DNA of 64,000 nt from a virus. Taxonomy: Duplodnaviria; Caudoviricetes. The position numbers and the translations under genes are program-made. Of this stretch, positions 35,203-57,730 are shown piece by piece. Location of the stretch: positions 64,001-128,000 of the IMG/VR virus record IMGVR_UViG_3300011774_000001; one strand, written 5' to 3'. The notes beneath the pieces are model-generated. The model did not search any database. It was not told the DNA's origin and saw nothing but the letters and a program-made list of their open reading frames with translations. How positions within the stretch are numbered: position 1 is the first letter of the stretch; each line of letters begins with the position of its first letter.

Positions 35203-36528
35203 TTACTTGTAGTAGTTCATGGTAAGGGCACGGACCACGATGTAGAGTTCGAGGGCAGTGCGCAGGGAGGCGATCTGTGAATCAGACTTGGACAGCTTGG
35301 ACTTGCGAACAATCTCTTCAGCATAGTCACGCGCTTTGATCAAGCCTTGATCCTTCATACGGGATGCGCCGTAGAGGTCTTTGAGTTTGCTGACGAGACC
35401 AGCGAGGTTGTCCACCGACTTGATGTCGATGCGGTTCTGCTGGATGTACTCGATGGCGTGTAGGACCAGCTCTTCGGACAGCTCGTTGGTGGGGACTTTG
35501 GTGCGTCCCTTGTGTGCCTCGCAGACCCACTTCAAAAGATCCCAGAAGAGGTTCTCAGACACCGTACTGACCATCTCACGAACAATGGTCACCACCTCAT
35601 CACGGATAAAGGTGTTGGCATCATTCATCACCGACTGGATGTAGGTAACGTAGCGTTTGTTACCGTCAGTATTGGATTTGAGCATCAGCTCACCGTCAAT
35701 CACCAACGTCGAGGTTGTGGTACGAATACGCCCACCGTTACGACGAATGTCCATGTGGACCTGGAAAATCTTCTTGACCACTTCACGCAAACGGTCTTGT
35801 GGTTCAGTCACCGCGTAGGTCACACGACTGTCGGGTGCGTAGTGCGTTACCACACGGGCGTGAATACCGTTGGGTGCCAAGAAGTTCTCAGCACGGGTTG
35901 TGAACCATGCGCCCCAGCTACCCGCCTGCTTGATACCCCACTTGAGGTCGAGCGAGGCATAGGTGGCCTTGGCTTCCTCGATGGAGGCTGGCTTGTCATA
36001 CCAGTGGGACAGGAGCGAGGTGAACAGCTTTACCTGCAGCATGTAGAACACGTCGATCTTCGCTTGGTCTTTATCCTTGAGCGGGATCTTGCTGGAGGTA
36101 TGAAGGCGGTGCAGCAAATACAGCGCAGCGGTGTTGTACGGATCAGACAGACGAGCAAAGTCAGACTGAATCAGTGGCGTCTTGACGATGAGTTGGCGAG
36201 CATCGTGTTCATCGATACCCAACACGTCCTCAAAGAACACGTCACGGTCCATCTTGGTGTGCCGTACGATTTCCACACCGAGCAGGTTGCCACCGAAGAA
36301 TGCAATGTGGTCTTCGTTCTTGTTAATGAAGCCAGACTTGTAACGACGGATGCGGTCCACCAGATACTTGTCCACTACAAGGTCAACGCACAGATCATCG
36401 TAGACCTGTTTGATAGCGTCACCTGTGGCACCCAATGCCTCCAATGCCATGAGCGGGGCTGGGTTGTTATGGTGGGCTCTGTCGAACTCTTGGTCGAACC
36501 CGTAGGTACTTAACAGTTGGTATGACAT
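35203..36528 (-). CDS. Conserved jumbo-phage virion protein (phiKZ gp32 / SPN3US gp262-like)
   Basis: NKNEDHIAFFGGNLLGV motif; 441 aa; convergent with terminase. Confidence 0.75.
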   Translation of the reverse strand: MSYQLLSTYGFDQEFDRAHHNNPAPLMALEALGATGDAIKQVYDDLCVDLVVDKYLVDRIRRYKSGFINKNEDHIAFFGGNLLGVEIVRHTKMDRDVFFEDVLGIDEHDARQLIVKTPLIQSDFARLSDPYNTAALYLLHRLHTSSKIPLKDKDQAKIDVFYMLQVKLFTSLLSHWYDKPASIEEAKATYASLDLKWGIKQAGSWGAWFTTRAENFLAPNGIHARVVTHYAPDSRVTYAVTEPQDRLREVVKKIFQVHMDIRRNGGRIRTTTSTLVIDGELMLKSNTDGNKRYVTYIQSVMNDANTFIRDEVVTIVREMVSTVSENLFWDLLKWVCEAHKGRTKVPTNELSEELVLHAIEYIQQNRIDIKSVDNLAGLVSKLKDLYGASRMKDQGLIKARDYAEEIVRKSKLSKSDSQIASLRTALELYIVVRALTMNYYK

Positions 36529-36580
36529 GATGGGTTCCCTAGGGGATTAACGGACTATACGATAGAACCTGATTTAAAGA

Positions 36581-36610
36581 GATTTCAAACCTAGATTACC
36601 AACATGAATG
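36581..36610 (+). promoter_or_regulatory. Putative early (vRNAP) promoter, copy 3
   Basis: GATTTCAAACCTAGATTACCAACATGAATG. Confidence 0.6.
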
Positions 36611-36665
36611 ACAGTCAATAATGATCGTTGTTCTAACTATTCCCACGTCCTAAGGAGGACATGCC

Positions 36666-37556
36666 ATGAAACAAGCGAACATTACTTTCATCGAAGGTGT
36701 TGACGGTGCCCTGATCTTCCAATACGAAGGTCGCAACTTCCTTTACGCTGGTCGTAAGGATGGCCTGATGTATGGCATCTCCACGGCTGGCAACAACTGG
36801 AAGCACCTGCTGGAGGACGCTGGTAATCGTGAGTACGAGAAGGTTGGTGAGCGGGCTGCCAAGCTTGGCTTGGACTTCATGACCTTTGATCTGGGGGTTC
36901 TCAAGATCGATGCTGTCGCCAAGCTATCGGATCTGATGGAGACCTACGATGACTTCGAAGGTCTGGGTGTCATGACCATCAGCAAAACCGATTGCCGTTC
37001 TCCAGACGGTATCACCATCGGGTTGATCGATGGCATGATCGCCATGGCTCGGGTGCTGCGTAAGGCCAACCTCGGCGCAGCAGAAGTACAGGAGGCTCTC
37101 AAGGACTTCACCGCCGATGAGGATGTGAAGTGGCTGATGGAGCACTCGGTACAGAACTGGGAGTTCGGTGAGGAGGTCGATAAGGACTGGCAGTTAGGCG
37201 ATCCTCTGACACCTGTAGTTGTCATTCCTGAGGCAGCTCTTCAGTCCGCTGGAGAGCAGTCGAAAGAAGGCATGTTCAAGGTGGAGTACGCCCAGAAGAC
37301 CTGGCCATGCGGTTGGGATCAGGAGGACTCTGTGGCTGAGTTCGCTAACCGGGACGAGCTGAACACTTGGCTGCTGGGCAAGATCGAGTGGTGCAAGTAC
37401 GAGGAGAACGGCTTCCGCTGCCGCGTCTACTTGTACAAGGACAACTTCCCGTACTCGGTTGGTAAGGGTGAGTGGACTGACAAACAGTTCGCTGACGTAG
37501 GTCTCAACTGGAAGCCTACTGTTGAAATCCTGGCCGACATGGAATGGATGAAGTAA
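36666..37556 (+). CDS. Hypothetical protein
   Basis: 296 aa; hairpin SD leader. Confidence 0.75.
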   Translation: MKQANITFIEGVDGALIFQYEGRNFLYAGRKDGLMYGISTAGNNWKHLLEDAGNREYEKVGERAAKLGLDFMTFDLGVLKIDAVAKLSDLMETYDDFEGLGVMTISKTDCRSPDGITIGLIDGMIAMARVLRKANLGAAEVQEALKDFTADEDVKWLMEHSVQNWEFGEEVDKDWQLGDPLTPVVVIPEAALQSAGEQSKEGMFKVEYAQKTWPCGWDQEDSVAEFANRDELNTWLLGKIEWCKYEENGFRCRVYLYKDNFPYSVGKGEWTDKQFADVGLNWKPTVEILADMEWMK

Positions 37557-38132
37557 ATGCAAGTAACTGTCCTACCTCCACAACCGGATGGTAAGCAGTT
37601 GACTGCTCGGCATGTCGTCAAGACTCTTGGTGAACATGCCGCAGCTTTCATGCTGGCCAACAACATCCGTGGGTTCCAGAAGGATGATGACTACGTCTTG
37701 CGAGACGATCTGGTCATGGACATCCTCCTGGGCATCGCTTGTACCACCGGACTCACTCGGACCCAAGCCAAAGAGTTTGGGTTCAAGATACGGGTCCTTA
37801 CCAAAGCTGCTGGGATTAAAGTCAGTTTGTCTGAATGCTTTAACCTGGTGGCCAGGGCGCTGGGCTACCATGCCTACAACCTAGCCCATATGTGTTCAGA
37901 TGAGGAAGGCTTCATCGAGAACCTGTGGGCTTATGGTGTTATCATCAATACACAGATGCTGGATGCTGATGATGACAAATCGGTCATGCGAACTAACCGT
38001 CAACACTGGCGAATGCTCGTGGATCGGCGCAAGAAGAACTCCGGTCAGAAGATCATCAAACCGGATATGTCGGAAAAGAAATCTACTCGTTTAAAACGTG
38101 AGCGTGCTCGGCCAATCGAGTACCGCGTTTAA
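37557..38132 (+). CDS. Hypothetical protein with a helical 'glyoxalase-superfamily-associated' (Glyoxalase_8-like) segment
   Basis: AK..G..IR...K.AG..VS.S....LVA.ALGY..YN pattern. Confidence 0.55.
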   Translation: MQVTVLPPQPDGKQLTARHVVKTLGEHAAAFMLANNIRGFQKDDDYVLRDDLVMDILLGIACTTGLTRTQAKEFGFKIRVLTKAAGIKVSLSECFNLVARALGYHAYNLAHMCSDEEGFIENLWAYGVIINTQMLDADDDKSVMRTNRQHWRMLVDRRKKNSGQKIIKPDMSEKKSTRLKRERARPIEYRV

Positions 38133-38158
38133 TCCCCAAGATCTAAGGAGATCTAAAA

Positions 38159-38572
38159 ATGGCTTTCAAAGACTACTCCCCTAAATCCCTGCTGACCGGT
38201 GGTTTCCTCGTAGCAGTGTGCTTTGCCATCATGACCTTCTTGTTCATGCTGGCGTACCGGATCGTGGGTCAATTGCCGACCAACGTCTTGACCGTTCTCT
38301 CGGTGGTGTACTTCATCTGGCAGTTCTTCCACTTTGCGAGCAATCCCAAAAAGGAAGATGAGTACATCAACAATCTGGCCCGAGTCTACAGCTACTCGTG
38401 GGCCAAGCACTTCAACGCAATCATGATGTTGGTAAACGGTGCGGCGCTGTTGGCCTTGTTCATTTTGGGCTGGTGGTTCGTGCTGGTCGTAGGTGTTGTA
38501 ACTTCGGCGATCGTGTGGAAACACTTCGACCGAGCTGAAGCCCGGTACATCGCTTCTGTTGTTGCTAACTAA
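38159..38572 (+). CDS. Multi-pass membrane protein (about 4 TM)
   Basis: Four hydrophobic segments; hairpin SD leader. Confidence 0.7.
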   Translation: MAFKDYSPKSLLTGGFLVAVCFAIMTFLFMLAYRIVGQLPTNVLTVLSVVYFIWQFFHFASNPKKEDEYINNLARVYSYSWAKHFNAIMMLVNGAALLALFILGWWFVLVVGVVTSAIVWKHFDRAEARYIASVVAN

Positions 38573-38596
38573 TCCCCCAACTTCGAGGTAGTCGTC

Positions 38597-39082
38597 ATGT
38601 TCAGTATGTCCAACCACGCTCAAGACAAAGCAGTTTTCAATGACCACGTGGACACCATTATCGAAGCACTGCGTGCCGAAGATTACATGGTCCGTCTCGA
38701 CAAGGAAGGTGCCAGCAACAAGAAGCACCAGCTGCTCGGCGTCGTGCTCTGCTACAGCGACAATGCCACGCAGTTCGTCTGCCCTTGCTACAACGACCTG
38801 GAGTTCGAGTTGAACCCCATCCGTCTGAAGGAAGGCAAACTGTGCGTCACCCAGAAGTCCATCGGCATGGCCACCAGCGTGGGTCTCAAGTGGTTTGAAA
38901 CCAAATCACTGACCTACACCGGCAGCCTGTCGATGTTCCTGACTCGCGAAGAAGAACTCGCTGGTCTGGAATACACCCCACCTCCGCTGTATGTGGTGGT
39001 GGTAGACGAACCGCTGGTATCCCAAGCCGAAGCTGCGGCCAACGCTGCTGACGCCGTCAAAGATACACCAGCTGCTGTATGA
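38597..39082 (+). CDS. Hypothetical protein
   Basis: SD GAGGT; shares a motif with 40231..41331. Confidence 0.7.
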   Translation: MFSMSNHAQDKAVFNDHVDTIIEALRAEDYMVRLDKEGASNKKHQLLGVVLCYSDNATQFVCPCYNDLEFELNPIRLKEGKLCVTQKSIGMATSVGLKWFETKSLTYTGSLSMFLTREEELAGLEYTPPPLYVVVVDEPLVSQAEAAANAADAVKDTPAAV

Positions 39083-39175
39083 TCCATAGGGCCTTCGCAA
39101 GAGGGCCCGCTCTTATGCACATTCATTGGGAGTGTGCATAAAAGTCATAATCCCCAAGTCCTAAGGAGGACTGCA

Positions 39176-40198
39176 ATGAAAGACCTGGAAAAGAAATACT
39201 CGGCTGCCGACATCGAATCGGCCAAAGCCTGGGTTCGCAATGAGTGCGGTGCCATGAGTGAGGAGGGTTTCGAGAAAGCAGTTAAGCAAGTGCTCGAAAT
39301 GCGTGAGACCACCCATGTGATCAAACTGGATGGTGCCGTACCACTGAACATGTACGGCGGCCCTACTCCAAAGGTGGAGCTGCTGGACCCAGAGCCTGCG
39401 GAAGAGCCTCTGCTGAATCTGGACAACGTCCGCCGGATGCCAGAGATGCAGAAGCCTGACCTGTCATTTGAAGACAGGGTCACCAATCGCCTGATGCTGG
39501 CAATGGCTCGGGGTGAGATTGTGCTGGCGCTGGATGGCACTCCTGAAGGTAAAGCTCACGATGCCAAGGTGGTCAAAGATTACCTGACTCGTGAGGCTGG
39601 GTACTACCCCTACGAGACTCGCGATCAGTGGTTGGCTTCCAATGGTGGCGTCACCAGCGATGGTCATGGATCGCTGTGGTTCGAATACCCAGGCGACGGC
39701 ATGAGCGACATCAACCCGCCTCGACCAAGTGAGAAGCATGCCACCGATCTGCTAGACAAACTGCCAGCGCGGCAGCTAGGTCAGAACGTGGACTTTGCCG
39801 ACATTGCGCCAAGCGACTTTGAGTTGTTGGGCATTGATCCATCGGAAGCCAAGCCACGACCTGTGTTTGTAGAGGTGGACATCTCCAAACTGGCAGAGGG
39901 TGAAAGCTACATCACGCCAGACGGCAAGAGCTACACCAAGGTGCATGGTCGCATGGTGCCTTCAGACGCGGTGCAGACGGCTCTGTCTTCGATTCACTTG
40001 GACCGACCTGCATCTCCTGCTCGTCAGGAAATGTTCAAACGTCACGTGGATCTTAAGCTGGAGGACATGAAGCTCAGTCCTGCAGACGAGGCCACAGGTT
40101 TTGAGAAGGCGTTCCGCGAACGTCATCCTGACCTGCATCGTGGACTGCCACCTGGCCATGCCCTCAAAGTCACCCCAATCAAAAACGATGATAAATAA
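39176..40198 (+). CDS. Hypothetical protein
   Basis: ATG 39176 after the hairpin SD leader. Confidence 0.7.
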   Translation: MKDLEKKYSAADIESAKAWVRNECGAMSEEGFEKAVKQVLEMRETTHVIKLDGAVPLNMYGGPTPKVELLDPEPAEEPLLNLDNVRRMPEMQKPDLSFEDRVTNRLMLAMARGEIVLALDGTPEGKAHDAKVVKDYLTREAGYYPYETRDQWLASNGGVTSDGHGSLWFEYPGDGMSDINPPRPSEKHATDLLDKLPARQLGQNVDFADIAPSDFELLGIDPSEAKPRPVFVEVDISKLAEGESYITPDGKSYTKVHGRMVPSDAVQTALSSIHLDRPASPARQEMFKRHVDLKLEDMKLSPADEATGFEKAFRERHPDLHRGLPPGHALKVTPIKNDDK

Positions 40199-40230
40199 TC
40201 ATCCTATCCCCAAGTCCTTAGGAGGACAAC

Positions 40231-41331
40231 ATGTCTAAAGCTTCCCGTGACCTGATCAAAAACCTGACTCCAGAAAACCGCAATCTGGTGTTGTTGTTGC
40301 AAATGCGAATGGGTCACTACATCGATGGCGAGATCACGATCTGCAAACAGGTCGTCATTCTCACCCAGAACGATCGGGAGTACATCTGCCCGGCTGCTAA
40401 CCCATTCACTGGTCGCATGAACTACAAACCTCTGCAACTGAATGCAGAAGGTGATCTGTTCTTGTCCCCAATCGCGTTGCAGGGTGGTTGCAACTTTATC
40501 GGCGTGCTGGACATCATGGTGGGTGCTGAGGAATTGGCGCAAACCATGCGCACTGTCTCTGCCCTCAAGAGCGCTCCAGCCGCCACTAAGGGTGTGGATG
40601 TGGTCGTCATGGGTAACGAGATGCAGAGCGCTGTGGGGTACAGCGATGGTCTTATCAATCCTGAGTTGGTGATCACCCAAGATGCTATCCAGCGTCGGCT
40701 GGTAGGCCCTTGGGATGGTCCAGGTTGGGATGAAGGGATGGATGAGGAAACTCGTCGTAATCGTCTCTTTCTCTGGGATAAGGCATCTTCAATGGGTGAG
40801 GTCAGTGAAACGACCAAACGTCAGATCCTTGAAGCCACCAACTCATTCCCCAATGTGCGAGACATTCATGGTGGGTACTACCGCAATCCAATTGCGGATC
40901 TGCCAGAGAGTCTGCCGCTGCCAGAAGGTGGTCGGGATGCTCGCAAGTTCCGTGAGGTCACTGTTGGTGAAATGATGGAGGCGCTCCCAGATCGCTCTGA
41001 TATTCAGATCAGTTTGGACCGCGCCCCACGCCAATCCCCGATTCGTATTCACGGCGAGTCTGAGATGAACCCTAACTACCCTCTTGGGATGTCAATCAAT
41101 CCTGAGGTGTTGGCAACCATCGATGCCTGGGCTGACCCAGAACTGCGCAGTGCTGCAAAGTCCATACTGAGCAGCCAGACCCCGCTGAGCGATTCGGAAT
41201 ACTTCAATCGCAAGATGCAAATGCCTGGTTACCAGCCTGCCAAGTTCAGCTTCTGGACTCGCATGGGTTGGAAGTGGGCAGATCTCAAAGACCGCGTTGG
41301 TCGTTTCTTCTCTAACCTGTTCAAACGTTAA
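40231..41331 (+). CDS. Hypothetical protein
   Basis: Hairpin SD leader; amphipathic basic C-terminus. Confidence 0.7.
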   Translation: MSKASRDLIKNLTPENRNLVLLLQMRMGHYIDGEITICKQVVILTQNDREYICPAANPFTGRMNYKPLQLNAEGDLFLSPIALQGGCNFIGVLDIMVGAEELAQTMRTVSALKSAPAATKGVDVVVMGNEMQSAVGYSDGLINPELVITQDAIQRRLVGPWDGPGWDEGMDEETRRNRLFLWDKASSMGEVSETTKRQILEATNSFPNVRDIHGGYYRNPIADLPESLPLPEGGRDARKFREVTVGEMMEALPDRSDIQISLDRAPRQSPIRIHGESEMNPNYPLGMSINPEVLATIDAWADPELRSAAKSILSSQTPLSDSEYFNRKMQMPGYQPAKFSFWTRMGWKWADLKDRVGRFFSNLFKR

Positions 41332-41358
41332 TTATTCCCAAGTCCTAAGGAGGACATC

Positions 41359-41559
41359 ATGGTTTCTGTTAAAGGTATCGCTATTCTCGTTTTCGGTATG
41401 GTTGTAGGTGGTGTGGTCGTTTCCAATTCGTCGGCCATGCAAAGTTCTCCGGCTGCCAAAGCCAACGCTGAAGAAGTCATCACCGGTCACCGCGTAAATC
41501 CGCTGGGCCAAGAGATGCTCACTTTCAAAGGCGCCCGTGCACAGATCGTTGCACTCTGA
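41359..41559 (+). CDS. Small exported or membrane-anchored protein
   Basis: Signal-peptide-like N-terminus; hairpin SD leader. Confidence 0.6.
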   Translation: MVSVKGIAILVFGMVVGGVVVSNSSAMQSSPAAKANAEEVITGHRVNPLGQEMLTFKGARAQIVAL

Positions 41560-41583
41560 TAACCTACCAGCTGGAGAGATACC

Positions 41584-41970
41584 ATGGATCTGTTTGACGT
41601 TGTAACCACTTCTTCTTCCACCCGTCACATGGAATTCAAAGACGAGTGGTTCACCCGCAGCGAGGGCTTCAAAGCTCTGGTCAATGCGGAAATCCCTGAA
41701 CTGGAAGTGGGTGGTGTAATTGCTACCCGCGCTCCTGCCGACAACCGTCTGTTGGTCATCGGCACCCCTTTCGGCAATGTGGTGGTCATGGAGGTTGATC
41801 GCGATAAGCGTCACGCTCTGTTGTACTCCACCCCTGCCATCGAAGGATTGTTTGGTCACTGCTATCTTCCAGATGACCAACTCGAAGGCATAATCGGCGC
41901 ATGGGGCAAAGATAATATCGGCCACCGTCTCGCCAAGTTTTCCACCATCCATGAGACCAAAGGAGGTTAA
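41584..41970 (+). CDS. Phage hypothetical protein
   Basis: F...W...G...R.LVIGT.FGNVVV.E motif recalled from myophage hypotheticals; SD GGAG. Confidence 0.65.
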   Translation: MDLFDVVTTSSSTRHMEFKDEWFTRSEGFKALVNAEIPELEVGGVIATRAPADNRLLVIGTPFGNVVVMEVDRDKRHALLYSTPAIEGLFGHCYLPDDQLEGIIGAWGKDNIGHRLAKFSTIHETKGG

Positions 41971-41972
41971 TC

Positions 41973-42320
41973 ATGGCTAGCAACAACTCCGCAGTTCTTT
42001 ACATCCGCAACCCTGACGAGCGCTCCGCTCAGCGTCATCTGGCTGTGGACGATGACCCCAAGTGGGTTGCCAAAGTCAAATATGTTCTGGAGAACGGTGC
42101 CGAGTACGCTGACCTGGTAGGTCCGCTACTGGTTGCCCACGATGTATCTGGCGGTGGTCGGATGATGTTCTACCCACTGCCCTACATCTTCCGTACTGAA
42201 CGCGAGCGCGCTGTAGCGGCTGCTCGCCTGGGTAAAACACCACCCCCAGAAACTTGGGTTCAGCGCAAGGTGCGCGTACTGCAAAAGATGTTTGGCCGTC
42301 AAGAGCCACAGGTCGCCTAA
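41973..42320 (+). CDS. Hypothetical protein
   Basis: SD AAGGAGGT. Confidence 0.65.
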   Translation: MASNNSAVLYIRNPDERSAQRHLAVDDDPKWVAKVKYVLENGAEYADLVGPLLVAHDVSGGGRMMFYPLPYIFRTERERAVAAARLGKTPPPETWVQRKVRVLQKMFGRQEPQVA

Positions 42321-42363
42321 ATCTTAAGGCGGCGTAATCCCCACGTCCTAGGGAGGACAAGTG

Positions 42364-42732
42364 ATGAAGTCGATCCGTGAAAATGTAATGGAAACGAAAC
42401 TCCACACCACTGAACGCACTGTTGTAGACGGCACAGTGATGGCTTACGGTTTGCTGGGCTCTGCACGTGCCTGGCAACAAGATGCCATTCAACAAGGTGA
42501 CGTAGGCGATGCACATACTCGCCTGCTGCACGAGTTGGCTGTCCTGTTGCACTGTGCACCCAAAGAGGAATCCACACCGGTCCTCAGCAATCTGGAGAGC
42601 CATGGCTTTCTGGTTGGCTTTGAAGTAGAGGCATCCCGTGTGGCCATTGCCTGTGATGGGCATCAGTTGTCTGCAGTCATTACCCGCGATCAAGCCTTGG
42701 CCTATCAGGCTGAGAATAAACTCATCCACTAA
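42364..42732 (+). CDS. Hypothetical protein
   Basis: Hairpin SD leader. Confidence 0.65.
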   Translation: MKSIRENVMETKLHTTERTVVDGTVMAYGLLGSARAWQQDAIQQGDVGDAHTRLLHELAVLLHCAPKEESTPVLSNLESHGFLVGFEVEASRVAIACDGHQLSAVITRDQALAYQAENKLIH

Positions 42733-42749
42733 CCCGATAAGGAGGACGT

Positions 42750-43259
42750 ATGAAAAAGCACATCGAACATGCGTCCTCCATCATCGCGCAACATTACGGC
42801 CTTGTCTGGAACGGACGCTCACTGACTCTCAAACGCTGGGAGTCGGTGGGTTGTCTGTCCAGTTTATTTTTTGTTTCAATACACCTAGATTCCAGCACAC
42901 ACCTCTATCTCGTTGACCGCAAGGACATCGATACCGAAGAGGAGGGCATGCGTTTGAAGCTACCGTGTTTTCATTTCAGTCCGCAGATGGTCGACTCCCT
43001 AGAGAGTGATCGACATCAAGTGTGGTATCTAGCCGCTGAAGGGGAACTGATCCTCATCAAAGATCACAATGTCGAACGACTGTTCAAGCGACTGCGCATT
43101 ACCCATGTAGGTGGTGATCGTCATCGATTTGAGCAAGATGTGTTGGGCACCGACATTGAGATCAGGCAACCTTATCAACCCGGTCGAGGTAGGGTTAGAA
43201 AGGATTATTGGAAGAACCACCTCAACCGAAAGCCTAAGCCGGTCTTGGTGCCGGCATAA
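42750..43259 (+). CDS. Hypothetical protein
   Basis: SD TAAGGAGG (degenerate leader). Confidence 0.65.
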   Translation: MKKHIEHASSIIAQHYGLVWNGRSLTLKRWESVGCLSSLFFVSIHLDSSTHLYLVDRKDIDTEEEGMRLKLPCFHFSPQMVDSLESDRHQVWYLAAEGELILIKDHNVERLFKRLRITHVGGDRHRFEQDVLGTDIEIRQPYQPGRGRVRKDYWKNHLNRKPKPVLVPA

Positions 43260-43310
43260 TTCTCCCTCCTGCCTTTCGGGGCGGGGGGGTCTATGCTGTC
43301 TTTTTTTTTG
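43253..43310 (+). terminator. Hairpin + CTATGC + T-run terminator
   Basis: CTCCCTCCTGCCT-TTCG-GGGCGGGGGGG-TCTATGCTGTC-T9. Confidence 0.7.
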
Positions 43311-43395
43311 TGTCGTGGTGGCCATTTGATGTACGTTCACCCAGAGTTAATCTATGTAGTACCCTGACAATCCCCCTTATGTACGGAGTTTGGCC

Positions 43396-43785
43396 ATGAC
43401 ATCTGCATTGGTTAAACGCATAGAGTCAACGACTCAGTCGCGCTACATTCTGGATGGCAGGGGTCCCTCTGTTGCCCAGTATTGGTCAGACTATCGGGGC
43501 CTCGAAGCTATGCTCTCTGAGCGGCATAGCACTGCGCTGTACATGGCGCAAGTGGCTAAGGAAAGGGGTGAACTAGACCGTAAGTTCTCGACAGACATTC
43601 CCCAGTCAGTCTTGAACAACTACATTGTCCAAGCACCCTCGATTCTGCGCAAGCTGGACAGAGATATCAAAAACATCATTGATGAAGGAGGAGCTGACGC
43701 AATAGTGTACTTGAAAACACTATCCACGGTTAGAGGCGCGATGACTGACACCATCACGCACTTAGGCCGACTTGTAGGAAGCTGA
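43396..43785 (+). CDS. Hypothetical protein
   Basis: SD GGAG; same operon as the macrodomain gene. Confidence 0.55.
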   Translation: MTSALVKRIESTTQSRYILDGRGPSVAQYWSDYRGLEAMLSERHSTALYMAQVAKERGELDRKFSTDIPQSVLNNYIVQAPSILRKLDRDIKNIIDEGGADAIVYLKTLSTVRGAMTDTITHLGRLVGS

Positions 43786-43787
43786 TC

Positions 43788-44234
43788 ATGACTGTATCTG
43801 TCACTTACCAAAGCGTCTTTGATTCCCCAGCCCAGGCGCTGGTGGTTACGGTAAACTGTGTCGGCATCATGGGTAAGGGCGTAGCTGAAGTTTGTAAGCG
43901 CAAATACCCGCAAGTGTTCATCGACTATGTTCGCCGTTGCCGAAGTGGCAAGATCACTGTTGGTCGGATAAGTAATGAAGATTGCTACCAGCTGGCTGAT
44001 GGGCGGTACATCATCCTGTTCCCCACCAAAAACCACTGGAGACGAGACAGTCAAGTTTGTTGGATTGAAACAGGGTTAGCCGACCTTCTCGGTCACTGCC
44101 ACCGTCTGAGCTTAGATGACGTGGCCTTACCTCCCCCAGGCTGCGGTAATGGTGGCTTGGAATTAAGCGACGTTAAGCCTCTAATCGACCTCATGTTCGA
44201 GGAAGAGGGTGTTGAGGTTACCTTATGTATATAG
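43788..44234 (+). CDS. Macrodomain ADP-ribosyl glycohydrolase (DarG/TARG1/Poa1p-like)
   Basis: VNCVGIMGKGVA, FPTK.HWR..S, ALPPPGCGNGGL. Confidence 0.85.
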   Translation: MTVSVTYQSVFDSPAQALVVTVNCVGIMGKGVAEVCKRKYPQVFIDYVRRCRSGKITVGRISNEDCYQLADGRYIILFPTKNHWRRDSQVCWIETGLADLLGHCHRLSLDDVALPPPGCGNGGLELSDVKPLIDLMFEEEGVEVTLCI

Positions 44235-57058: not shown

Positions 57059-57730
57059 ATGCAGGGGCTATTCATTACGTTGGAGGCTACAGAGGGTGCT
57101 GGCAAGGGCACTTCTCGTGGTTTCCTCGACGACTGTTTTAAGGCCTCTGGCCGAATGACCACACTAACGCGTGAGCCGGGTGGCACTCCATTTGCTGAAC
57201 GCATTCGAGAATTGCTACTAGCGCCCAGCGATGAGCCGGTGTGCAATGAAACTGAACTGTTGTTGATGTTTGGTTCTCGCATGCAACACATTCACAGCGT
57301 AATCAACCGGTATGTGGAAATGGGGTCTGTGGTGCTCTGTGAGCGATTTACCGACAGCACCTATGCGTATCAGCATTACGCCCGTGGAATGCCTAAGGCG
57401 TTAATTGACGGCCTTGTGGAGTTACTTAAACCACCTGTGCCTGACTACACCTTCATCCTCGACATCGATCCTGAGATTGGCATGGCCAGGGCCAGTGCTC
57501 GTGGTGTTCTGGATCGTATTGAACAGGAACACATCGACTTCTTCCATCGTGCTCGGAACGGTTTTCTGACACGAGCCAAGGAAGATACTTCAGGGCGTTT
57601 CCGTATTGTCGATGCAACGCCACCGATTCCAGAAGTACGCAAACAATACCTTGATCACCTACTCAACGATAATCTAATTACACCAGAGGCTGCTGCGCTG
57701 GTGAGGGAGAAATACGATGTCGCAGAATAA
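57059..57730 (+). CDS. tmk: Thymidylate kinase
   Basis: FITLE..EGAGK.T P-loop, TREPGGT, (E)RFTDSTYAYQ, LDRIEQE. Confidence 0.95.
   Translation: MQGLFITLEATEGAGKGTSRGFLDDCFKASGRMTTLTREPGGTPFAERIRELLLAPSDEPVCNETELLLMFGSRMQHIHSVINRYVEMGSVVLCERFTDSTYAYQHYARGMPKALIDGLVELLKPPVPDYTFILDIDPEIGMARASARGVLDRIEQEHIDFFHRARNGFLTRAKEDTSGRFRIVDATPPIPEVRKQYLDHLLNDNLITPEAAALVREKYDVAE

Follow-up and report, generated by a model that had tools for sequence, protein, structure and literature searches.

In one sub-branch of the nucleus-forming phages, predicted early genes share a covarying hairpin over the Shine-Dalgarno sequence

Introduction

The coat protein operator of phage MS2 is a single small hairpin near the Shine-Dalgarno (SD) sequence, and the phage protein bound to it blocks entry of the 30S ribosomal subunit. 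In phage T4, 30S entry is also blocked by phage proteins, either at the initiation regions of the RegA regulon, whose sites are unstructured and AU-rich, or at the gp43 operator, a single site with a small hairpin near the SD (PMC3014915). The closest descriptive precedent for the element studied here comes from Cluster K mycobacteriophages, where the short repeat SAS, an asymmetric 13-mer of fixed sequence that allows no more than two changes, overlaps the SD of many unrelated genes in one orientation and is conserved in relatives, and where ESAS adds separate 17-bp inverted repeats (PMC3203893). Here we analyse a hairpin over the SD of six genes in a 64,000-nucleotide stretch of viral DNA (the window), taken from a single contig of 230,984 bases, of which it is positions 64001-128000, the IMG/VR record IMGVR_UViG_3300011774_000001 (hereafter G000; G001 and similar names denote related records, and gene numbers such as g105 and g113 are our own gene calls). 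In contrast to SAS, the sequence of this element varies, its pairing is conserved and the SD forms the apex of the hairpin.

Other described systems share single features with it. The targets of T4 RegB carry GGAG in the SD of early mRNAs, followed by a 3' tail similar to that found here (PMC1702504). CsrA/RsmA hairpins place the GGA of the SD at a stem-loop apex (PMC3791407), the hairpins of T4 e, soc, 49 and I-TevI require a later transcription start inside their 5' arm (PMC3014915), and the PeSL cassettes of T4-type phages, each a sigma70 promoter plus a terminator stem-loop for which recombination was shown, recur as regulatory heads in a hyperplastic early region, where some of the genes gained or lost lie close to them (PMC2839356). 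By the features tested, the element described here is outside the CsrA, RegB, PeSL and SAS classes.

Nucleus-forming phages keep transcription apart from translation. We found in the literature no description of a post-transcriptional cis-element on the early mRNAs of these phages. An AT-rich -10-type motif has been described before early operons (PMC7598289).

Results

Pairing over the SD is conserved while the stem sequence changes

An earlier note on this DNA had described six genes headed by an SD hairpin, and we found all six as it described them, with each stem 3-5 nt 5' of a start codon (stems at 36647-36660, 38139-38154, 39157-39172, 40214-40227, 41342-41355 and 42345-42358). A second operon, at G000:32.6-36.1 kb, contains five more copies. 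The exact stem pattern gave 5 hits against 0.28 expected (0/100 shuffles), and an SD hairpin of this type was present at 15 G000 genes, compared with 3.05 expected and a maximum of 8 when 5' arms were permuted among genes. A covariance model run on G000 recovered the eleven copies and one weak extra hit.

Covariation was scored in 49 distinct copies that came from eight phages and had been chosen for pairing. At the three outer positions of the 5-bp stem, both partners had changed in 7, 7 and 23 copies, with zero mismatches. Cells in which both sides had changed numbered 52, against 17.8 in shuffles that ignore kinship, and every slid-register control was lower. When genes were picked by orthology, 132 of 144 stem cells were paired versus 56 of 153 in neighbouring families; the unpaired cells belonged mostly to shorter-loop variants or to a paralogue that lacks the motif. 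Three different perfect stems and one shorter-loop form were present in orthologues of the copy-2 gene, and covariation was seen among paralogues and orthologues alike. G-U pairs occupied just 2 of 159 outer-stem cells. Pairing, not stem sequence, is what is conserved. The compensatory changes at 38139-38154 had been taken earlier as a sign of selection on structure, and both the covariation and the orthology-chosen pairing agree with this. As judged from these comparisons, the hairpin is real and is an RNA element under selection, placed where translation of some of the predicted early genes begins.

From 5' to 3', the element consists of an A/T-rich stretch, a CC(A/T) box (C-box), one or two spacer bases and a stem of 5-6 bp. 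The apex is formed by a C-G pair, a U-A pair and a four-base NAGG loop, and a perfect SD runs through the loop into the uppermost part of the 3' arm; in variant copies the loop has three bases or the U-A pair is open. Inside the C-G pair, the 53 copies read TAAGGA (38), TTAGGA (4), TAGGA (3) or otherwise (8). The C-box was present in 49 of 54 copies, compared with 20% of other GGAG genes, and conservation of this unpaired box does not depend on the upstream hairpin. That second hairpin, situated 7-13 nt upstream in most copies, is either a 5'-leader stem that follows a predicted early promoter or one that looks like a phiKZ terminator; it was treated as context because copy 5 lacks one and because such hairpins precede 66 of 101 control genes. 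In G014 and G016 the C-box is widened to runs of up to ten C (L131:2230-2256, L135:2140-2168). It resembles the 3' end of 16S rRNA in a minority of copies, and a search for an antisense partner yielded scattered short matches and no convincing complementary site. Pairing of box and loop in a pseudoknot was ruled out on geometry (2-3 pairs, no connecting loop). Over 36400-43500, Rfam covariance models gave no match at E up to 1.

The hairpin is weak relative to the SD that it covers

The predicted stability of the hairpins ranges from -0.9 to -6.2 kcal/mol, compared with -7 to -12 kcal/mol for the duplex between SD and 16S rRNA, so that the hairpin on its own is not expected to silence a gene and should have little damping effect. 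Opening the initiation region costs 8.4 versus 6.5 in controls; since the SD is much stronger (-12.0 versus -7.3), the predicted net initiation energy is nevertheless more favourable (-3.0 versus -1.2 in controls, p 0.004), and the GGAG is more often unpaired. The earlier description of the SD as buried was overstated, since the GG of the SD sits in the loop and net ribosome binding is predicted to be better than at other genes. Hairpins of even about -1 kcal/mol remain perfectly paired. Together with the near-absence of G-U pairs, these perfect weak hairpins fit recognition of shape better than occlusion. Strict pairing of weak helices next to a conserved unpaired box would be expected if something reads the shape.

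The element occurs across a sub-branch of nucleus-forming phages

G000 is an uncultured, phiKZ-like jumbo phage of the Chimalliviridae type, with a nuclear shell gene (phrog_4795 match, E 6e-75), two multisubunit RNA polymerases (RNAPs) and a PHIKZ068 orthologue. Both the second RNAP beta gene and the PHIKZ068 orthologue are present, and the virion RNAP beta is about 34% identical to those of Xanthomonas, Burkholderia and Ralstonia jumbo phages. We found no close cultured phage and no DNA similarity to cultured phages; near-identical sequence is contained in plant and rhizosphere metagenomes.

The four closest IMG records each gave 5-12 covariance-model hits. A sister clade with about 33% amino-acid identity gave 7-14 and a third group 4-6, whereas G028 gave 3 and the other distant records 0-1. 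The three clear copies of G028 (about 31% amino-acid identity) are at 57474, 202058 and 233538, two of them directly behind predicted early promoters. Gene scans of full genomes returned 12-16 sites in four positive genomes versus 2-3, the background, in three negative ones. The cultured Pseudomonas phage pPa_SNUABM_DT01 (DT01), whose host is P. aeruginosa, holds seven copies on one strand, perfect or nearly so, each 5' of a start codon. In 14 cultured relatives (including the phiKZ-like OMKO1, RAY, EL, PCH45 and Noxifer) we counted 0-1 copies under stricter filters, which weak or different hairpins can escape. By this sequence survey, the element occurs across a sub-branch of nucleus-forming phages, in which it marks 4-16 predicted early genes per genome.

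Motif genes are predicted early genes

The motif is often at the first gene after a predicted early promoter, and in four genomes its sites were enriched behind such promoters (Fisher p 1e-5, 1e-6, 2e-6 and 9e-3), 'early' being assigned by promoter resemblance to the motif of PMC7598289. Unrelated genes carry the element. In the sister clade, the PHIKZ068 orthologue is under it in G014 and G016, and the second (non-virion) RNAP beta gene in G016. The motif had been assigned earlier to accessory genes and had not been seen before core genes. The second statement is true of the clear G000 copies and false in relatives; the defining class is early rather than accessory, since the motif precedes PHIKZ068 and RNAP beta genes in relatives and is enriched behind early promoters.

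The most widely motif-led gene is g30, which has the motif in five genomes. It encodes an acidic, Cys-rich and probably Zn-binding protein (phrog_15864; G000:32606-33349; L023:4607-5347). The g30 family was dropped as a candidate regulator, being strongly acidic and having 80 homologues, many apparently outside the clade.

A candidate protein family tracks the element

The family of g113 was the sole island family clearly present in all four positive genomes and in none of the three negative ones. Of the 53 records examined for it, every one of the 15 that hold four or more copies has a member; so do one copy-free fragment, G026, G037 and, as a weak match, EL. In both G026 and G037 a motif-like site lies at the gene adjoining the g113 homologue. 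In G000, G015, G016 and DT01 the motif also leads this gene, either directly or through a motif gene that overlaps it. In G000 a degenerate copy precedes it, the G015 and G016 homologues overlap a motif gene, and the DT01 homologue lies directly behind one. Across 68 sequences the family conserves R, W, Y and P residues and a basic helix.

The predicted g113 model had a pLDDT of 83. An Atlas feature search was blank and an Atlas structure search gave a TM of at most 0.40; such poor matches do not show that the fold is new. Two viral predicted-fold matches led us to DT01, which was then found to hold its seven copies, so that this phage is one independent confirmation of the linkage between g113 and the motif, not of binding. 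The adjacent DT01 genes PA10_00304 and PA10_00305 (L260:8877-9847) encode products of 220 and 103 amino acids, the lengths of the two fold matches; they were identified with these by length, and a profile confirms PA10_00305 only. g113 could also be an ordinary member of the regulon.

Further features of the window

The features of the window listed here between 36587 and 42747 are all on the plus strand. A predicted early (virion RNAP) promoter at 36587-36599, an AT-rich -10-type motif assigned to its class by resemblance and one of 14 similar sites in the genome, is followed by a 5' leader hairpin (H1, 36606-36633) that begins near the predicted transcription start. Such 5'-terminal hairpins lie within a few bases of many predicted early promoters, with or without an SD hairpin, for example at G000 promoters 57218, 78944, 128501, 144548 and 173621 and likewise in G014 and G016; they are probably shields of the 5' end. 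A Nudix-like protein (G000:45403-46107; L039:4406-5107, minus; Atlas score 0.97, PF00293 in 14-34% of cluster members), was present in the four motif-positive genomes and in 0/3 of the motif-negative ones with which they were compared; RNA 5' ends are a possible target of this protein.

Copy 1 (C-box and hairpin, 36639-36660) precedes a 296-aa open reading frame (ORF) at 36666-37556. The next ORF (37557-38132) is extra and took the place of an intergenic hairpin of relatives; its 3' end forms an H1-type hairpin with the same CCAAT apex (38094-38130), 5' of copy 2. Copy 2, with the compensatory stem (38132-38154), precedes a 137-aa membrane-protein ORF (38159-38572). Copy 3 (39150-39172), before a 340-aa ORF (39176-40198), follows a terminator-like hairpin at 39089-39108 and an H1 hairpin at 39109-39145 (together 39089-39145); the former, with its TTAT, resembles phiKZ terminators (compared with PMC10914365). 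Copy 4 (40206-40227, loop TAGG) precedes a 366-aa ORF at 40231-41331, residues 304-331 of which match phrog_3015, an RNA polymerase subunit family (E 4e-5); the family profile also matches the gene that follows the second RNAP beta gene (G000:190996-192990), as well as orthologues of that gene in six genomes (E 1e-6 to 7e-4). Copy 5 (41334-41355), without an upstream H1, precedes a 66-aa ORF (41359-41559) with a hydrophobic N-terminus. The gene g113 (41973-42320), which encodes a 115-aa basic protein, is followed by an H1-type hairpin spanning its stop codon (42312-42333), 5' of copy 6 (42337-42358, loop AGGG; ORF 42364-42732). Pfam and PHROG scans gave no function for the motif genes.

The earlier note also listed degenerate copies near 38571 and 42731. 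The former (38572-38592, before ORF 38597-39082) has a C-box, but its stem is mismatched and is not kept by orthologues, which leaves it a doubtful relic; the latter (42733-42747) is just a strong SD, and no stem accompanies it either in G000 or in three close orthologues. A better degenerate copy, absent from that note, is the one before g113 at 41955-41968, with 4 bp, a six-base loop and CCA upstream.

The island is closed by a conserved ORF of 129-131 aa (43390-43785), found in most relatives fetched, and a Macro-domain gene (43788-44234) comes next. Two early islands, at G000 31-36 kb and 100-107 kb, exchange families in relatives (L033, L027, L024). In two relatives, free-standing endonuclease genes of the HNH (faint hit) and GIY-YIG (weak hit) types lie beside structural genes upstream of the island (L025:16268-17413; L034:11281-11922).

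Discussion

We put at about even the chance that the element is a cis-acting RNA operator common to a subset of early mRNAs, read by a protein and working like a phage translational operator. The unbound, weak hairpin would be opened by the 30S subunit, and the motif genes, whose SDs are among the strongest of the genome, would be translated early. A protein reading the C-box together with the shape of helix and loop would then clamp the hairpin and alter translation of the entire set, most plausibly by repression after early products accumulate, with activation as the alternative. The resemblance is probably to the blocking of 30S entry by RegA or gp43. A translational regulon with an RNA-binding protein, one of three options raised earlier, is thus what we infer as the best reading, and its CsrA/RsmA version fails the test of register. 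As to the protein, it is a tentative and rather unlikely proposal that a g113-family protein (gp304/gp305 in DT01), small and of undescribed fold, binds the C-box plus the U-NAGG-A hairpin and autoregulates within a dedicated early translational regulon, to which non-virion RNAP genes belong in some phages of the sub-branch.

Several observations weigh against an operator read by such a protein. G028, with three good copies, has no g113 homologue, the co-occurrence of g113 and motif is confounded by shared ancestry, and the g113 model had no match to a solved RNA-binding fold (best Z 2.5 among solved structures). Searches of G000-G002 found neither a CsrA nor a RegB gene, and an RNA-binding Pfam family was assigned to 0 of 184 proteins of up to 300 aa. 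Of the 14 predicted early promoters in G000, just 3 are followed by motif genes, and the PHIKZ068 orthologue of this phage has lost the stem. The 50-row alignment was picked for pairing, and template-switch mutation can produce compensatory pairs without intermediates. Template switching could supply compensations in this way, but would not limit stems to these genes.

An initiation region that chaperones itself, with no dedicated factor, is a less probable account that still carries some weight. Here the weak hairpin would guard a strong SD from long-range misfolding on mRNA uncoupled from ribosomes in the early vesicle, and the C-box would be a standby or S1 site where the 30S subunit melts the hairpin. 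The energetics agree with it, as the hairpins are weaker than the pairing of SD and anti-SD, net initiation is better than in controls and the GGAG is more unpaired; the box tolerates changes of length up to ten C, no known regulator gene was found in our searches, and a transcriptionally active early vesicle with uncoupled expression is reported in the abstracts of 10.1101/2023.09.20.558163 and PMC12908238. However, cultured phiKZ-like phages, which are equally uncoupled, show 0-1 copies, most early and late G000 genes lack the element, and a fixed apex with almost no G-U pairs exceeds what the model needs. A signal or shield for a nuclease, whether RegB-like cutting in the SD timed by pairing or a cut at the box that frees single-gene messages, seems improbable. 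The seven bases after GGAG do match the 11-nt RegB consensus, which starts with GGAG, at a mean of 4.9 of 7 positions versus 2.6 in controls, and 2 of 53 copies match it in full (consensus from PMC1702504); the motif is limited to early genes as are RegB targets, and an upstream hairpin lies 7-13 nt before many copies; yet the stem dictates three of the matching positions, and spacers rich in A are generic. RegB acts at single-stranded sites and is inhibited by structure (PMC1702504), whereas the tail here forms the 3' arm of a stem whose pairing covaries, and no RegB homologue was found (PF10715 absent from G000-G002), although a remote analogue may exist.

The remaining explanations fare worse. 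Gene turnover between relatives is strong and families move between the two islands, as would be expected if the hairpins were primarily PeSL-like recombination joints that shuffle accessory genes. One deletion fuses the head of one gene to the body of the next at the hairpin, one replacement begins just 3' of the hairpin, one insertion duplicates a whole head, and about 3 of 5 inspected gain or loss events are compatible with exchange in heads, against a high baseline, as any viable gene swap must land near an initiation region. The g33 junction, however, is 5' of the box, the g106 junction is at a stop codon, close strains (about 97.5% identical) showed no supported indel at the motif, and a search for a tyrosine recombinase was empty. 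As stems diverge under selection that keeps them paired, identity between copies falls. In relatives, core RNAP genes are under the motif. Most copies also lack a promoter (one per six window copies), unlike PeSL, and pairing over the SD is the conserved feature. We regard recombination joints, the third option raised earlier, as very doubtful in the primary role and at most a by-product, with only some breakpoints in repeats; a secondary recombination role of the heads is plausible. It is highly unlikely that the copies are targets of host CsrA/RsmA. At the apex of the hairpin the GGA does overlap the SD, most copies contain ANGGA, the family also binds flexible ANGGA sites (PMC3791407), and the DT01 host is P. 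aeruginosa. The register, though, is shifted by one base, so that a loop of ANGGAN or AGGAN inside the C-G pair was found in 0 of 53 copies; several copies have T, C or G in place of the first A of ANGGA, the last A is usually paired, a second GGA within 60 nt upstream is missing in 34 of 53, leaving usually a single one, and no phage CsrA gene was found in G000-G002. Hardly more credible is a switch of the T4 e/soc type, in which the hairpin would silence long transcripts until a later promoter starting within the 5' arm frees the SD. SD-sequestering helices are a known phage mechanism (PMC3014915), but many copies stand at the first gene behind an early promoter, and no start inside the 5' arm is indicated here: the late-promoter word TATG was found in 2 of 53 copies, both with a start 5' of the stem (middle promoters are not predictable). 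The hairpin is, moreover, predicted to be too weak to silence or to block the 30S subunit.

New in this work are the link to core early RNAP genes, a cultured carrier and a candidate protein. A defined covarying element spans phages that share just about one third of their amino acids. If the proposal for the g113 family were true, the system would be a switch similar to RegA whose operator is structured, a kind for which we found no description in nucleus-forming phages. The seven copies of pPa_SNUABM_DT01, on the tractable host P. aeruginosa, and a named candidate protein provide handles that make testable how nucleus-forming phages turn off or prioritise early translation.

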